A stretch of DNA of 37,863 nucleotides from Dehalococcoidia bacterium. GTDB taxonomy: Bacteria > Chloroflexota > Dehalococcoidia > Dehalococcoidales > Fen-1064. The position numbers and the translations under genes were made by a program. This document shows positions 33,501 through 37,751 of the stretch, one piece after another (position 1 is the stretch's first letter; each line of letters starts with the position of its first letter). Location of the stretch: the NCBI GenBank assembly GCA_030691775.1, contig JAUYDN010000240.1, positions 1-37,863 of the forward strand, read 5' to 3'. A model generated the notes under the pieces. It ran no database searches and was not told the DNA's origin. It saw only the letters and a program-made list of their open reading frames with translations.

Positions 33501-33630
33501 GTTGACCTCCTGTGCCACAAAAAATAAAGATGAGCTTTTATGCGCTCATCCCATCCGCAGTGCGTGCGTAAAATACCCCGCCGGGGTCAGGTTGTCCGCG
33601 CCATCGCCGAACAAGTGAGCACAAATAATA

Positions 33631-33660
33631 ATAATAGCAAAGAATTAAGATGAATGTCAA
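33631..33660 (-). promoter_or_regulatory. Predicted sigma70-type promoter of the rpsL (str) operon: TTGACA-18-TATTAT
   Basis: On the minus strand, -35 TTGACA is at 33655-33660 and -10 TATTAT at 33631-33636. This gives a leader of about 120 nt containing a 7-bp hairpin gatgagc/gctcatc (33529-33550). Confidence 0.45.
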
Positions 33661-33804
33661 CATTTAGAATGGGGGGTGTTGGATGGGGGGGACGGGTTTT
33701 AGTTTCTCAATAGTCCACGAAAACAAGAAAGTCACCTGAACATTAATTCAGCGTGGGCGGTTTGATACAAATCTACACATTTTGAAGTTTTTATATGGTA
33801 GGCG

Positions 33805-34269
33805 TTAAATTATCTTCTCCAATTTCTCAAATATGGCTTTACAGTGTCTATGGCAAGCCTTAATTTCGATTAAAGTCATATTGGAAGAGCTTCCATGAGC
33901 AACAGCGTTTTTATTTGTCACAATATTATTTAAACCCGTTTTAGCTTTGTAAGGGATTCTCTTATTCATAGCTACCACCCACTTTTTACTGAACCGTCCG
34001 AGTATTGTCGTCAGATTGTCCCAGTTCGGGTTTCTGAGTTGTAGATCCAGAGTTTTTTCAACAAATGTCTTAATCTCAATATCACCGCTCTTAGCCGCCC
34101 TTTTGTTAAGGAGATGCTCAAAGCAGTCCTCGTACGCTCCCGATATTAAAACCACCAGATATGACACAAGATCAGCAATTATTTTGCTGTCACCTTTAAA
34201 TCTTTCTATTCGATTGATAGTTTCCTTTATGAAAAGGAATTTGTCACGAACATATTGCTCTCGTATCAT
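33805..34269 (-). CDS. Small helical protein with HEPN-like (RNxxAH-type, Arg->Lys) motif; partner of the DUF262 gene
   Basis: 154 aa from ATG 34269, which lies 1 nt after the upstream stop (157 aa from TTG 34278, overlapping it by 8 nt). NKNAVAHG is encoded at 33895-33912 near the C-terminus. The coding sequence is AT-rich. Confidence 0.6.
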   Translation of the reverse strand: MIREQYVRDKFLFIKETINRIERFKGDSKIIADLVSYLVVLISGAYEDCFEHLLNKRAAKSGDIEIKTFVEKTLDLQLRNPNWDNLTTILGRFSKKWVVAMNKRIPYKAKTGLNNIVTNKNAVAHGSSSNMTLIEIKACHRHCKAIFEKLEKII

Positions 34270-34270
34270 T

Positions 34271-35317
34271 TCACCCAAACAACCCCTGTTGCGCTAACTT
34301 AATTCTTTGTTTAACCGTATCTACGTCTGTAGTTGAGCTAGAAACATATCTATCAAAGGAATCATTATTCAGTAATTTCCTATACTGTTCTCTGAGGTCT
34401 AACTTTCTATTAAGCAGATTGTGGTAGAATGCCACCATAACAGAATCGCAAATAGCGGCATTTAGACCACGCTGTCGGTGGAATGGTTTAGAGTCCAATG
34501 TTTCAACTACATAATTAACAGCGCCCTCGAAGTTGCTTCGGTATTTTTCAAAACGCTCTTTATTGTTTCGATTTTCTTTCATAAAATCCGTCAAAAAATC
34601 AGTCATTGGTTTATGATATCGATCGCCGTTCTCCGCTAATGCCAGTGTCCTCAGCACTAATTCCACATCTCTGTATCTCTTGTCCACTACAGCACTGCCT
34701 AGTATGACTCGCCAGTTCGGAATACTATTTAATTCCATTAGGAATTTACTAAATTCTCCATGGTATAAAGCATTTCTGATTTCCTGAGAATTTAAGGTAG
34801 TGCCTCCAGTATTAAGCCTTTTGAAGATGTGGTACATACTTGTGTTATCTTTAGGATCCAACTGTTCAATAATAATGGTCCTTAGCACCGCATCTCTAAG
34901 CCGTATCTTGTCGGCGCTATTTAACTGACTGAAAACAAGTCCCTCCCAGACCGCCTTAACCTTTCTAAGTGAAAATCTTTGGCGCGTGTCAGGAAATTCT
35001 TCTGCAAAGTATCCGAATACGCTTCGTAATCTTTGTTGTCCGTCGACCACAAGTAATCTCTGAGTATCGCTCTCTCTATAAAGGAACAAGGGAGGAACAG
35101 GGAGACCTAGGAGAAATGATTCGATAAGACTGCTAGCTTGGTTGATAGTCCATACAAAGCGTCTTTGAAACGGAGGAACGAATATTTCTTCCGATATCCA
35201 CTTATCATAAAGACCTTGGAGAGTATAATCAGCCGGATAAGCTGCTATCTTATAGCGCGATACATCTTCCTCTGCATCGTCTCTCTCAGACTTGATTTGC
35301 TCAATTTTAACTGTCAT
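34271..35317 (-). CDS. DUF262 (ParB/GmrS-like N-terminal domain) protein without a recognisable nuclease domain
   Basis: FQRRFVW, VVDGQQRLRS (DGQQR at 35030-35044) and FKRLNTGGTTLNSQEIRN motifs. ATG 35317 is preceded by GAGGTGA with a 5-nt spacer (the ORF-track start is GTG 35326). Confidence 0.8.
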   Translation of the reverse strand: MTVKIEQIKSERDDAEEDVSRYKIAAYPADYTLQGLYDKWISEEIFVPPFQRRFVWTINQASSLIESFLLGLPVPPLFLYRESDTQRLLVVDGQQRLRSVFGYFAEEFPDTRQRFSLRKVKAVWEGLVFSQLNSADKIRLRDAVLRTIIIEQLDPKDNTSMYHIFKRLNTGGTTLNSQEIRNALYHGEFSKFLMELNSIPNWRVILGSAVVDKRYRDVELVLRTLALAENGDRYHKPMTDFLTDFMKENRNNKERFEKYRSNFEGAVNYVVETLDSKPFHRQRGLNAAICDSVMVAFYHNLLNRKLDLREQYRKLLNNDSFDRYVSSSTTDVDTVKQRIKLAQQGLFG

Positions 35318-35348
35318 TGGACTCACCTCTCGTATCGGTCGCGATGCA

Positions 35349-35377
35349 ATATTATTTCATTTCAAGGGCTATTTCAA
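35349..35377 (-). promoter_or_regulatory. Predicted promoter of the DUF262/HEPN-like cassette: TTGAAA-17-TAATAT
   Basis: On the minus strand, -35 TTGAAA is at 35372-35377 and -10 TAATAT at 35349-35354, about 30 nt upstream of the ATG. Confidence 0.4.
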
Positions 35378-35396
35378 GCCGGGCGCAGAATAATTA

Positions 35397-35433
35397 TCCC
35401 CCCTCGACTTACCACCCCTTCTCCATAATAGCT
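35397..35433 (+). repeat. 37-bp direct repeat, copy A (decayed copy of the tRNA-Phe promoter region)
   Basis: 33/37 identical to 36826-36862, with a 21-nt perfect core caccccttctccataatagct (35413-35433 = 36842-36862). Confidence 0.7.
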
Positions 35434-35457
35434 CGCAAAAAGAAGCCCCGTCAGTCT

Positions 35458-36738
35458 CTACGCAATCAACCCCTGTTCCTTGAACCTGGCGATGTCTTCC
35501 CACGAGTAACCAGCCTCGACCAGCACCTCCTCGGTGTGTTGCCCGAACTCGGGGGCGGGCATCCTGACGGTGGCCGGTGTCCCGCTCAGGTTCACCGGGT
35601 TTGCCAGCGCCTCGATGCGCCCGTGTGCCGGATGGTCGTAGGCGACGAAACAGCCAGCCGCCCTCGCCTGCGGGTCATTAATCACTTCCTTCAGGTTCTG
35701 TAGCGGCGCATAGGGCATCCCCTCGAGCAATGGTACCCAGTCTGCGAGGGGCTTGCGCATAAAAGTCTGGCTGATTTCCTGCCGGAGCAACGTGCAGTGC
35801 TCAGCCCTGCCTTCGGTGGTCGAGTAGCGGGCATCCTTTGCCAGGTCCTCCCGCCCGATGCACTGGCAGAACTTGGTCCAGTACCGGTCCGGTTGTAGCG
35901 CGACGAAGACAACTATCCGGAAATCGCTAGTTACATACGCGCCAGATAAAGGATTGGTGGCTTTGTTGCCATAAAAAGCCATGACCTGCATATTAGCCAT
36001 CTGGGCTTGCGCCACGACCTCCGGTGGTGGATTCTCACGCCAGTCCTCGAAGTTCATCCCTGTCGCAAGCGCACCGGCGACATCGAACGAATTCTGGTAA
36101 AGCCCCATGTGCAGAAGCGAGGTATCCACTTCCTGTCCCAGGCCGGTTTTCTCCCGCGCGTAGAGCGCCAGCATTACGCCGAAGGCAAGCCCCAGCCCGG
36201 TGACGTTATCACCGATTCCCGGCCGGTAACCCATGCACGGTACTCCCGGATAAGAGAGCACGTAAGGGATTGCGGCGCGCGTCCAGTAGGCAGTCGTGTC
36301 ATAAGCGGGCAGGTTCTTGTCCGGACCTGTCTTGCCATAACCGCTGACATTGCCGCTGATGATTCTCGGGTTGATTTTGCGTAGAGTGGCGTGCTCCAGT
36401 CCGTAACGTTCCAGCTCGAATGCCCTGAGGTTACTGACGAACACATCCGTCTGCTCGATAAGCTTGTAGAGGATGTTGCGCCCGCCCTCTTTAGCGATAT
36501 CGAGGGTGAGGCTACGCTTGTTGCGGTTGTAATTCTCCCAGTTGTAGTTAATGGCTGAGGGCGCCGCCTGCCGGCCAGCCGCGGAGACATCTTGGAAGAT
36601 GCGCCACGAGTCCCCGGTGAGCGGGTTCTCCACGTGAATCACATCCGCCCCGAAATCTGCCAGGTGACGGGCGCATACCGGCACCGCCGCCACCTGAGAT
36701 ACATCGATGACTTTAATTCCCTCTAACGCCAGAGCCAT
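35458..36738 (-). CDS. Family III CoA-transferase (CaiB/BaiF-like)
   Basis: MALALEGIKVIDVSQVAAVPVCARHLADFGADVIHVE is the typical family III N-terminus, over 426 aa. AGGAGG lies 5 nt upstream of the ATG. Confidence 0.85.
   Translation of the reverse strand: MALALEGIKVIDVSQVAAVPVCARHLADFGADVIHVENPLTGDSWRIFQDVSAAGRQAAPSAINYNWENYNRNKRSLTLDIAKEGGRNILYKLIEQTDVFVSNLRAFELERYGLEHATLRKINPRIISGNVSGYGKTGPDKNLPAYDTTAYWTRAAIPYVLSYPGVPCMGYRPGIGDNVTGLGLAFGVMLALYAREKTGLGQEVDTSLLHMGLYQNSFDVAGALATGMNFEDWRENPPPEVVAQAQMANMQVMAFYGNKATNPLSGAYVTSDFRIVVFVALQPDRYWTKFCQCIGREDLAKDARYSTTEGRAEHCTLLRQEISQTFMRKPLADWVPLLEGMPYAPLQNLKEVINDPQARAAGCFVAYDHPAHGRIEALANPVNLSGTPATVRMPAPEFGQHTEEVLVEAGYSWEDIARFKEQGLIA

Positions 36739-36879: not shown

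Positions 36880-37751
<872 letters not shown>

Follow-up and report, generated by a model that had tools for sequence, protein, structure and literature searches.

The question raised by this locus is whether a DUF262 gene followed directly by a small HEPN-like gene constitutes a defence or abortive-infection module that has so far escaped description, as the original prediction proposed, or whether it is a divergent version of a system that already has a name. Both genes lie on the minus strand of a 37,863-nucleotide stretch of Dehalococcoidia DNA (hereafter the window, meaning that whole stretch), and the answer reached below is that they probably form an anti-phage cassette of the PD-T4-2 type, two genes in length and acquired horizontally, that works in the manner we propose.

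Layout of the islet

The features on which the analysis draws are the following.

33600-35440, no strand assigned: low-GC islet of roughly 1.7 kb bearing the cassette, ~36-43% GC against ~55-63% in the flanks (composition profile)
35349-35377, minus strand: sigma-70-like promoter candidate TTGAAA-17-TAATAT upstream of gene 1 (consensus scan, 9/12 matches)
35323-35329, minus strand: Shine-Dalgarno sequence GAGGTGA, 5 nt upstream of the gene 1 ATG, read directly
34271-35317, minus strand: gene 1 (A subunit), ATG at 35317 to TGA at 34271, 348 aa, intact
35030-35044, minus strand: DGQQR, the motif for nucleotide binding in gene 1 (35030-35050 if the preceding VV is included)
34269-34273, minus strand: stop-start junction TGA-A-ATG with a 1-nt spacer, read from the sequence
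33805-34269, minus strand: gene 2 (B subunit), ATG at 34269 to TAA at 33805, 154 aa, intact
33895-33912, minus strand: K-N-A-V-A-H in gene 2, a Lys variant of the HEPN Rx4H motif (K120...H125)

The two reading frames, their TGA-A-ATG junction and the Shine-Dalgarno sequence ahead of gene 1 are all where they had been predicted to be; the pair spans 1513 bp in total, and the junction suggests translational coupling. The longest mechanical ORF for gene 1 begins at GTG 35326, within the Shine-Dalgarno sequence itself, whereas the homologues of gene 1 are 348 aa long and start with ATG. For gene 2 there is an alternative upstream start at TTG 34278, but its homologues begin with M-I-R-D after an identical 1-nt spacer, which favours the ATG at 34269 as the likely start. 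The sigma70-like promoter fared less well: the predicted hexamers were located, but the consensus scan found nine promoter-like sites around the cassette against 4.9 expected from shuffles, so the match is weak evidence that TTGAAA-17-TAATAT is the promoter of gene 1.

The islet is flanked by a CoA-transferase gene upstream of the cassette and by the rpsL operon downstream, and its low GC content (overall ~38-42%, where the flanks have ~57%) points to horizontal acquisition. The ORF list and a repeat search revealed no integrase, transposase or flanking repeats at its edges; the sole notable repeat, 18 nt with 16/18 identical, has one copy at the 3′ end of gene 1 and the other at that of the CoA-transferase gene, and these copies do not enclose the cassette. 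Within the window, the cassette is an ordinary small defence islet.

Two protein families and a lysine in the HEPN motif

Gene 1 matches the Pfam family GmrSD_N at 2.1e-25 (90 bits, gathering threshold 33), and the motifs by which it had been assigned to DUF262 were all confirmed, namely FQRRFVW (35150-35170), VVDGQQR and FKRLNTGGTTLNSQEIRN. QRxxxW, DGQQR and FxxxN are all found in the protein and are invariant across the gene 1 family alignment, as are residues D92, G93, Q95 and R96. Its AlphaFold2 model (pLDDT 88) is most similar in Foldseek searches to BrxU and SspE and then to the ParB/Noc/KorB CTPases, and by sequence only the N-terminus of BrxU was matched among solved structures. The prediction that the usual nuclease is missing also held, Pfam giving no match to DUF1524 or HNH even at E<=1. 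Gene 1 is a ParB-DUF262 NTPase domain followed by a helical, ParBDB-like C-terminal domain, without a nuclease domain. In the PADLOC collection it matches NsnA at 2.4e-69 (residues 8-343 on model positions 24-376 of 385) and PD-T4-2_A at 1e-48 (residues 42-344 on model positions 49-359 of 363).

Gene 2 had been proposed to adopt a HEPN fold of the RiboL-PSP or MAE_28990 kind, and Pfam bears this out, with HEPN_RiboL-PSP (PF18735) matched at 1.3e-10 (41.9 bits, gathering threshold 28.4) and HEPN_MAE_28990 as the second match at 0.02. The AlphaFold2 model is all-alpha (pLDDT 98, pTM 0.91), and its top seven matches in the PDB are all HEPN proteins, six of them HepT-type toxins. The likeness of the model to HEPN toxins is consistent across matches, with probabilities of 0.7-0.98 and TM scores of about 0.5, although the E-values are weak (0.1-0.4); sequence comparison with solved structures gave no significant match. 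Gene 2 is a RiboL-PSP-type HEPN protein, and its product is presumed to be an RNase effector. As judged from the sequence scores, the family assignments of both genes lie far above chance.

What sets gene 2 apart is its catalytic motif. The strict Rx4-6H form is replaced by Kx4H, and the lysine that had been noted in place of arginine is indeed there, at position 120. Such a change might be taken as the mark of a degenerate protein, but comparison with the family does not support that idea: among 167 sequences, 106 have K at position 120 and 59 have R, H125 is kept in 165 of 166, and 19 close relatives all retain both K120 and H125. Since most members of this branch carry Lys, it is clade-typical and no sign of decay.

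The lysine bears on a further reading of the pair, in which the HEPN protein would be a regulatory or adaptor subunit and the DUF262 protein the effector, acting for example by ParB-like DNA nicking or NTP depletion. The departure from the strict motif speaks for this; ParB-like domains have been described as possible DNases, and inactive HEPN domains are tabulated in other families (both Anantharaman 2013, PMC3710099). Yet H125, E47 and N121 are almost invariant, and the Lys is invariant in relatives of 63-73% identity, a pattern that fits a conserved active site and not decay. Moreover, a neighbour-joining tree of the gene 2 family requires at least 15 K/R switches at position 120, and no other column shows a compensating change, which suggests that K and R are equivalent there. 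Arg could be regained by one A-to-G substitution (AAA to AGA), and still the codon for Lys persists. We therefore regard a purely regulatory HEPN subunit as unlikely, and keep to the reading in which gene 2 is the presumed effector.

The literature yielded no published work showing an active HEPN protein of the Kx4H form. One tentative idea, which we consider unlikely, is that the Lys-type (KNxxAH) partners constitute a large, unremarked sub-branch of PD-T4-2-like systems that PADLOC models miss and in which the HEPN active site has been rebuilt. In such a site Arg79 of the strictly conserved F-R-N-P might supply the guanidinium that normally comes from the Arg of Rx4H; alternatively, the chemistry or the substrate might be unlike that of canonical HEPN RNases. 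The fact that most of the nearest relatives carry Lys where HEPN RNases normally carry Arg offers a concrete mutational test of mechanism.

The pair in other genomes and its relation to PD-T4-2

The original prediction turned on whether the two genes are neighbours elsewhere, and they are, in more than 100 loci from many phyla and on viral contigs too. Ten metagenomic loci share the same 348 + 154/156-aa layout and the same 1-nt spacer in surroundings that differ (type I R-M, Mrr, MazE/PIN). A genome scan with the gene 1 alignment as query placed a B family member directly downstream in 48 of the 54 GTDB loci that encode a close relative of A, and in 46 GTDB loci whose upstream A ORF is intact the gap between A and B runs from -17 to +12 nt. 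A more distant clade of A proteins has a RiboL-PSP HEPN gene downstream in all eight loci tested, and the pair was found on 24 of 40 viral contigs. Modules of DUF262 + RiboL-PSP-HEPN are thus distributed very broadly, their hosts including Chloroflexota, Acidobacteriota, Proteobacteria, Cyanobacteria, Bacteroidota, Actinobacteria and an archaeon.

The two subunits also diverge in step. In a set of 57 pairs, pairwise identity among the A proteins correlates with that among the B proteins (r=0.84, a value reached in none of 2000 Mantel permutations), and this co-evolution fits a physical complex of subunits. Mean pairwise identity is 22% for B and 43% for A; by this measure B evolves about twice as fast as A, which explains why HMMs miss gene 2.

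A published system has the same architecture. PD-T4-2 of E. coli ECOR65 is listed as 'DUF262, HEPN', two ORFs over 1540 bp, and protects E. coli against phage T4, the native strain included (Vassallo et al. 2022, PMC9519451). The best HHpred matches of its B protein are RiboL-PSP and then MAE_28990 (Table S3, PMC9519451), the order in which gene 2 matches these profiles, and its type is RCO39066.1 together with an adjacent unannotated ORF (QOYX01000002:338334-339873). An operon link of the same kind, 'Ribo L-PSP-HEPN ... operon with ParB', had been tabulated still earlier (Anantharaman et al. 2013, PMC3710099).

Our link to PD-T4-2 runs through the models of PADLOC, the domain table of the original paper and intermediates from E. 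coli rather than through the ECOR65 type sequences. On PD-T4-2_A, gene 1 scores much as the A proteins of E. coli and Klebsiella do, whereas gene 2 matches no PADLOC model at E<=1, the three PD-T4-2_B models included. The gap is bridged by two E. coli pairs, one on a plasmid (L011) and one in a P2-like prophage (L092), each of which matches both PD-T4-2_A and PD-T4-2_B and shows end-to-end homology to the products of gene 1 and gene 2. With the A protein of the prophage pair, gene 1 shares 33% identity along its entire length (E 2e-63); gene 2 is about 23% identical to the corresponding E. coli B protein, and its family profile aligns with the PD-T4-2_B-positive B protein of the prophage pair at 99.4% probability and E 2.4e-21 (hhalign). 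Within the gene 2 family, 18 of 122 members match PD-T4-2_B, and no PADLOC family ranks above it for the set. When E. coli genomes were searched by blastn, the Klebsiella pair gave no match, and the E. coli plasmid pair returned a related P2-prophage pair that is not demonstrably the PD-T4-2 type.

Against this background it is very unlikely that the pair is a genuinely undescribed system. There are grounds for having thought so, in that NCBIfam holds no model for either protein and the failure of gene 2 to match any PADLOC model means that automated tools would probably leave the pair without a name; for the same reason PADLOC 2.0.0 would not call it as a system. But the Pfam assignments and the architecture are those of PD-T4-2, the operon link dates from 2013, the E. 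coli pairs supply both profile-profile and full-length homology, and the misses are explained by the fast evolution of B. The claim of novelty is already largely refuted. What stands of the original proposal is that the two genes, coupled in translation, make up a compact cassette of defence type with DUF262 and HEPN products; its mapping onto a named system largely fits, except that gene 2 falls outside the PD-T4-2_B models. On sequence grounds we would place the window pair as a distant member of PD-T4-2, a named and tested system, and its unusual point is the conserved Lys. A fast-evolving B subunit that escapes PADLOC profiles also implies that the system is probably under-counted.

The same relatives bear on two other readings. 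The first is that the pair serves mainly for addiction, in the manner of a toxin-antitoxin module, and so stabilises mobile DNA, the HEPN protein being the toxin and the DUF262 protein the antitoxin. In structure, gene 2 comes closest to the HepT toxins of HEPN/MNT systems, the two genes are tightly coupled, and copies of the pair are found on E. coli plasmids of 3.9 kb, in prophages and on viral contigs. However, the order of the genes, the large one first and the small HEPN gene second, and a 348-aa NTPase as partner are unlike HEPN/MNT, Pfam finds no MNT domain, and the related E. coli system protects against T4 in its native strain too. The two roles are not mutually exclusive, but addiction as the main one seems improbable.

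The second is that the cassette is what remains of a Menshen (NsnABC) system after the loss of NsnB and NsnC, as might be thought from NsnA being the best PADLOC match of gene 1. The E. coli PD-T4-2-like A proteins likewise score higher on NsnA, which indicates that the NsnA model is simply broader, and nearly every locus of the gene 1 clade retains a HEPN partner. Gene 1 is followed by the HEPN gene and rpsL, with the CoA-transferase gene on its upstream side, and there is no ATPase or NsnC-like gene; with neither an NsnB ATPase nor an NsnC effector downstream, we reject this hardly credible origin on gene content.

A possible mechanism and comparison with known systems

What the sequence data show is which domains the two proteins have and that a nuclease is absent, that the genes stay together, co-evolve and are mobile, and that they are homologous to PD-T4-2-like pairs of E. 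coli. A mechanism may be envisioned beyond this; a search of the literature in full text found no published mechanism for PD-T4-2. The two products would form a complex in which the DUF262 subunit serves as a DNA-sensing, NTP-driven switch, as in GmrSD, BrxU and SspE. Phage DNA, possibly modified DNA, would be sensed by this subunit, upon which the HEPN partner would be released or activated, dimerise and, with Lys in place of Arg, cut RNA. Phage growth might then be stopped directly or by way of an arrest of cell growth.

Set beside known systems, gene 1 shares with GmrSD, BrxU and SspE the DUF262 NTPase domain, with its QRxxxW, DGQQR and FxxxN motifs, and a helical middle domain. It lacks their DUF1524 His-Me finger nuclease in cis and ends at residue 348, where BrxU and SspE extend to 560-590 aa; the effector would instead be a separate HEPN protein, presumably RNA-targeting. 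With the A subunit of Menshen it shares the ParB-DUF262 + ParBDB architecture, but a HEPN protein takes the place of the NsnB ATPase and the NsnC inPIN-nuclease effector. Later reviews group PD-T4-2, Menshen and Dazbog as DUF262 systems without DUF1524.

Gene 2, for its part, has the all-alpha fold and the conserved His of the x4H motif in common with the HepT toxins of HEPN/MNT systems and with HEPN defence RNases (DARNA/PD-T7-3, ApeA, Csm6), and these toxins and RNases are its best fold matches. Unlike them, it has no fused sensor, carries Lys for the catalytic Arg, and is paired with a DUF262 NTPase in place of the MNT nucleotidyltransferase. PD-T4-2 is the closest of all. Both it and the window pair consist of two adjacent, tightly spaced genes on the same strand, A then B, with a DUF262 protein without DUF1524 first and a small HEPN protein (~155-165 aa) second; their overall sizes are 1540 and 1513 bp, and both are carried on mobile DNA. 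They differ in host (E. coli against what the nearest relatives suggest is probably Chloroflexota), in that gene 1 matches the PD-T4-2_A model while gene 2 does not reach those for PD-T4-2_B, and in the motif, which is RNxxAH in the E. coli relatives and KNxxAH here.

Organisation and setting of the cassette

Two minus-strand genes make up the cassette, gene 1 encoding the A subunit (a DUF262 protein) and gene 2 the B subunit (a small HEPN protein).

ATG 35317 to TGA 34271, minus: gene 1, 348 aa
ATG 34269 to TAA 33805, minus: gene 2, 154 aa, starting 1 nt past the gene 1 stop
35323-35329, minus: SD GAGGTGA, 5 nt before the gene 1 ATG
35150-35170, minus: gene 1 motif FQRRFVW
35030-35044, minus: gene 1 motif DGQQR
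minus: gene 1 motif FKRLNTGGTTLNSQEIRN
33895-33912, minus: gene 2 motif KNAVAH
about 34027-34038, minus: gene 2 motif F-R79-N80-P81, residues 78-81

Both reading frames exist as originally predicted, and the first four motifs listed, on which that prediction drew, were all found. The mechanically longest gene 1 ORF starts at GTG 35326, which falls within the SD, and gene 1 homologues are 348 aa and start at the ATG. For gene 2, ATG 34269 is favoured over TTG 34278 because close homologues share an M-I-R-D N-terminus and the identical 1-nt spacer. The sigma70-like promoter proposed for the pair fared less well: a promoter scan does find TTGAAA-17-TAATAT, but with only 9/12 matches and in an AT-rich stretch (9 such sites versus 4.9 expected), so it is a plausible rather than a demonstrated cassette promoter.

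GC content drops to about 36-43% across the cassette, from about 55-63% on either side, making it a low-GC islet; its neighbours are a CoA-transferase gene (35458-36738) and the rpsL-rpsG-fusA operon. Neither a mobility gene belonging to the cassette nor a repeat bracketing it turned up among the window ORFs or in a repeat search. An 18-nt direct repeat (16/18 identical) links the 3′ end of gene 1 (34273-34290, QQGLFG*) to that of the CoA-transferase gene (35460-35477, EQGLIA*); its two copies do not enclose the cassette, and it reflects either chance or microhomology. On the other flank, a strong promoter-like site on the minus strand (TTGACA-18-TATTAT, 33660-33631; 11/12 matches, with TG) lies ~145 nt past the gene 2 stop, and a minus-strand hairpin with a T-run (33552-33527) sits just ahead of the rpsL GTG (33518); together they are probably the promoter and leader structure of the str operon. 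No clear terminator was found between gene 2 and this promoter-like site, and cassette transcription may therefore continue into rpsL. Beyond the CoA-transferase gene, a plus-strand tRNA-Phe (GAA) at 36880-36954 abuts a tyrosine-recombinase-like ORF (36891-37751, minus), whose mechanical frame crosses the tRNA antisense. The arrangement resembles the boundary of an integrative element running rightward past the window end, and the cassette, on the opposite side of the tRNA, seems to lie outside it.

The two proteins and the HEPN motif lysine

Gene 1 matches Pfam GmrSD_N/DUF262 (2.1e-25), and the three published DUF262 motifs (QRxxxW, DGxQR and FxxxN) are all present and invariant across its family. 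Its AlphaFold2 model (pLDDT 88) is nearest to BrxU and SspE, with the ParB/Noc/KorB CTPases next. GmrSD-type enzymes, however, run on into a nuclease where this protein stops, at residue 348, and no DUF1524- or HNH-like Pfam match appears even at E<=1; the prediction that the cis nuclease is missing was correct, and A, a protein of the DUF262 NTPase type, has a helical domain but lacks a nuclease. Among PADLOC models, gene 1 matches NsnA of Menshen (NsnABC) at 2.4e-69 and PD-T4-2_A at 1e-48, both nearly end to end. Li et al. 2025 describe ParBDB as the DNA-binding domain of NsnA, SspE and GmrSD, and the near end-to-end NsnA profile match suggests that the helical C-terminal half of gene 1 corresponds to it.

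The HEPN assignment of gene 2 holds: it scores 41.9 bits against Pfam HEPN_RiboL-PSP (gathering threshold 28.4), with HEPN_MAE_28990 second, and an AlphaFold2 model built from a 122-sequence alignment has seven helices (pLDDT 98, pTM 0.91). The seven best PDB matches of that model are all HEPN proteins, including the HepT toxins 6m6w, 6m6u, 7bxo, 7ae8 and 7ae6 as well as YutE, at probabilities of 0.7-0.98 and a TM of about 0.5, albeit with weak E-values of 0.1-0.4.

The substitution of Lys for Arg in the HEPN motif had been thought to put the activity of gene 2 in question. Lys is in fact the majority state at residue 120 (Lys 106, Arg 59 in 167 family sequences), and none of the 19 close relatives departs from K120 or H125. 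Across the family, H125 is conserved in 165/166 sequences, E47 in 165/168 and N121 in 128/166 (His in 21). A neighbour-joining tree requires at least 15 K/R changes at residue 120, and no other column of the family alignment switches along with them. Since the window codon, AAA, is a single transition from AGA (Arg), the retention of Lys points to selection, and we read Lys120, from these sequence patterns, as a functional alternative to Arg and not as decay. Lys-type sequences hold far more strictly to the F-R-N-P motif (R 90/106, P 104/106) than Arg-type ones do (R 30/59, P 35/59), and the Arg-type partner from E. coli reads M-N-P here; Arg79 might compensate for the absent motif Arg, or the pattern could stem from shared ancestry instead. 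No experiment with a Kx4H HEPN is known to us, and we infer an RNase-type activity for gene 2. The motif of B does keep its conserved His, and it is unlikely that the HEPN protein instead serves as an adaptor that does no catalysis while A acts as the effector.

Spread and co-inheritance of the pair

Co-occurrence elsewhere, proposed as a check, was found. Gene 2 has nineteen close homologues (63-73% identity), and in all ten loci inspected a 348-aa DUF262 gene lies directly upstream (truncated by the contig end in one, L003), with a 1-nt A-B spacer in 9/10. Their surroundings vary, and include a type I R-M system, Mrr, a MazE/PIN toxin-antitoxin pair and prmC/prfA. At L001 (4304-8423), where the pair directly follows a type I R-M system (HsdS, HsdR), an IS21-type element (IstA/IstB) is inserted between A and B and truncates the HEPN gene at its N-terminus. 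In four Dehalococcoidales loci (L004:477-5636, L005, L003 and L006) the cassette follows a 690-aa EF-G-like gene and faces prmC/prfA, with a tyrosine integrase just upstream; translation-apparatus genes adjoin it there and likewise in the window.

More broadly, an exhaustive HMM search with the gene 2 family returned 1088 clusters (50% identity) of stand-alone ~155-aa proteins at E<1e-3, and a gene 1-family scan of one genome per GTDB species gave 80 loci. Of the 54 GTDB loci whose A proteins are closest, 48 have a gene 2-family ORF immediately downstream; the gap is -17 to +12 nt in the 46 whose upstream A ORF is intact, and in the remaining two (L045, L054) that ORF is disrupted. In a more distant A clade the gene 2-family HMM missed the partner, yet Pfam places 8/8 tested ORFs downstream of A (174-189 aa) in RiboL-PSP HEPN above threshold. 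Hosts range over Dehalococcoidia and other Chloroflexota, Acidobacteriota, Klebsiella, Azotobacter, Stenotrophomonas, Streptomyces, cyanobacteria, Bacteroidota, Planctomycetota and an archaeon, and the partner is downstream in 24/40 IMG/VR viral contigs with an A relative. At one Vicinamibacterales locus (L019:3414-6328) a DUF262 gene of the close A type (476 bits) has a 4-nt overlap to a following gene for a 589-aa AIPR/AbiU-like protein (Pfam AIPR 3e-40, PADLOC AbiU 1e-44) in place of the HEPN gene, suggesting that a different effector has been joined to the same sensor.

Among 57 non-identical pairs, the pairwise identities of the A proteins track those of their B partners (r=0.84, a value reached in 0/2000 Mantel permutations), which fits a co-inherited pair whose products probably interact physically. 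B diverges about twice as fast (mean identity 22% versus 43% for A), which explains the failures of B profiles. The genes are tightly coupled, co-evolving and mobile, and relatives are found at prophage hotspots and next to further defence genes. It is improbable that the pair serves chiefly for addiction, in the manner of a toxin-antitoxin system. By analogy with GmrSD, BrxU and SspE, A may sense phage DNA, possibly modified DNA, and would switch through NTP binding or hydrolysis; the switch would release or activate a HEPN dimer, which might then cut RNA as other defence RNases of the HEPN type do, for example DARNA, a DNA-activated enzyme that cleaves tRNA.

Relation to PD-T4-2 and other DUF262 systems

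The original prediction was sound in its observation and in the identity of the parts but not in calling the system undescribed, since the DUF262 plus RiboL-PSP HEPN architecture is that of the published PD-T4-2, and Anantharaman et al. 2013 (PMC3710099) had already tabulated 'Ribo L-PSP-HEPN ... operon with ParB'. A truly new system is thus very improbable and essentially excluded. PD-T4-2 came from a functional selection in E. coli ECOR65 and protects against T4, and its deletion in the native strain raises T4 plaquing (PMC9519451); the homologous E. coli system blocks this phage. Reviews group it with Menshen and Dazbog as DUF262 systems without DUF1524. The higher NsnA score of gene 1 is not specific to the window, because E. 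coli and Klebsiella A proteins also rank NsnA above PD-T4-2_A; with no NsnB or NsnC gene present, Menshen was rejected, and a Menshen remnant, the least probable reading of all, is essentially excluded.

Gene 2 matched none of the three PADLOC PD-T4-2_B models, so PADLOC with its current profiles would miss the window cassette. PD-T4-2_B is nonetheless the PADLOC family matched most often by the gene 2 family (18, 14 and 3 of 122 diverse members on the three models). In the distant clade (L066-L089) the PADLOC 2.0.0 PD-T4-2_B models miss 7/8 of the Pfam-detected RiboL-PSP HEPN partners, and PD-T4-2-like systems are therefore probably under-counted by PADLOC.

Two E. coli pairs match both PD-T4-2_A (4e-50, 2e-55) and PD-T4-2_B (8.5e-4, 1.4e-8). 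One (L011, NZ_AP027804.1) is carried on 3.9-kb non-mobilizable plasmids along with a VbhA-family antitoxin gene, and the other (L092, NZ_CP025859.1:4583524-4585294) belongs to a P2-like prophage, where the genes for the cI repressor and the integrase flank it. The prophage A protein occurs on 533 contigs. Gene 1 shares 33% identity with it over its full length (E 2e-63), and the gene 2 family profile matches the prophage B protein at 99.4% probability (E 2.4e-21) over about 150 columns that include the xNxxAHG motif.

In the supplementary tables PD-T4-2 is listed as 'DUF262, HEPN', two ORFs in 1540 bp; its A protein matches DUF262, and its B protein, of about 163 aa, has HEPN_RiboL-PSP (97.8%) and then HEPN_MAE_28990 (96.9%) as best HHpred hits (PMC9519451). 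The window pair spans 1513 bp, and gene 2 matches the same two HEPN families in identical order. Linked through the gene 2 family matches and the E. coli intermediate pairs, the cassette most probably belongs to the PD-T4-2 (DUF262 plus RiboL-PSP HEPN) family as a divergent member of the Lys type.
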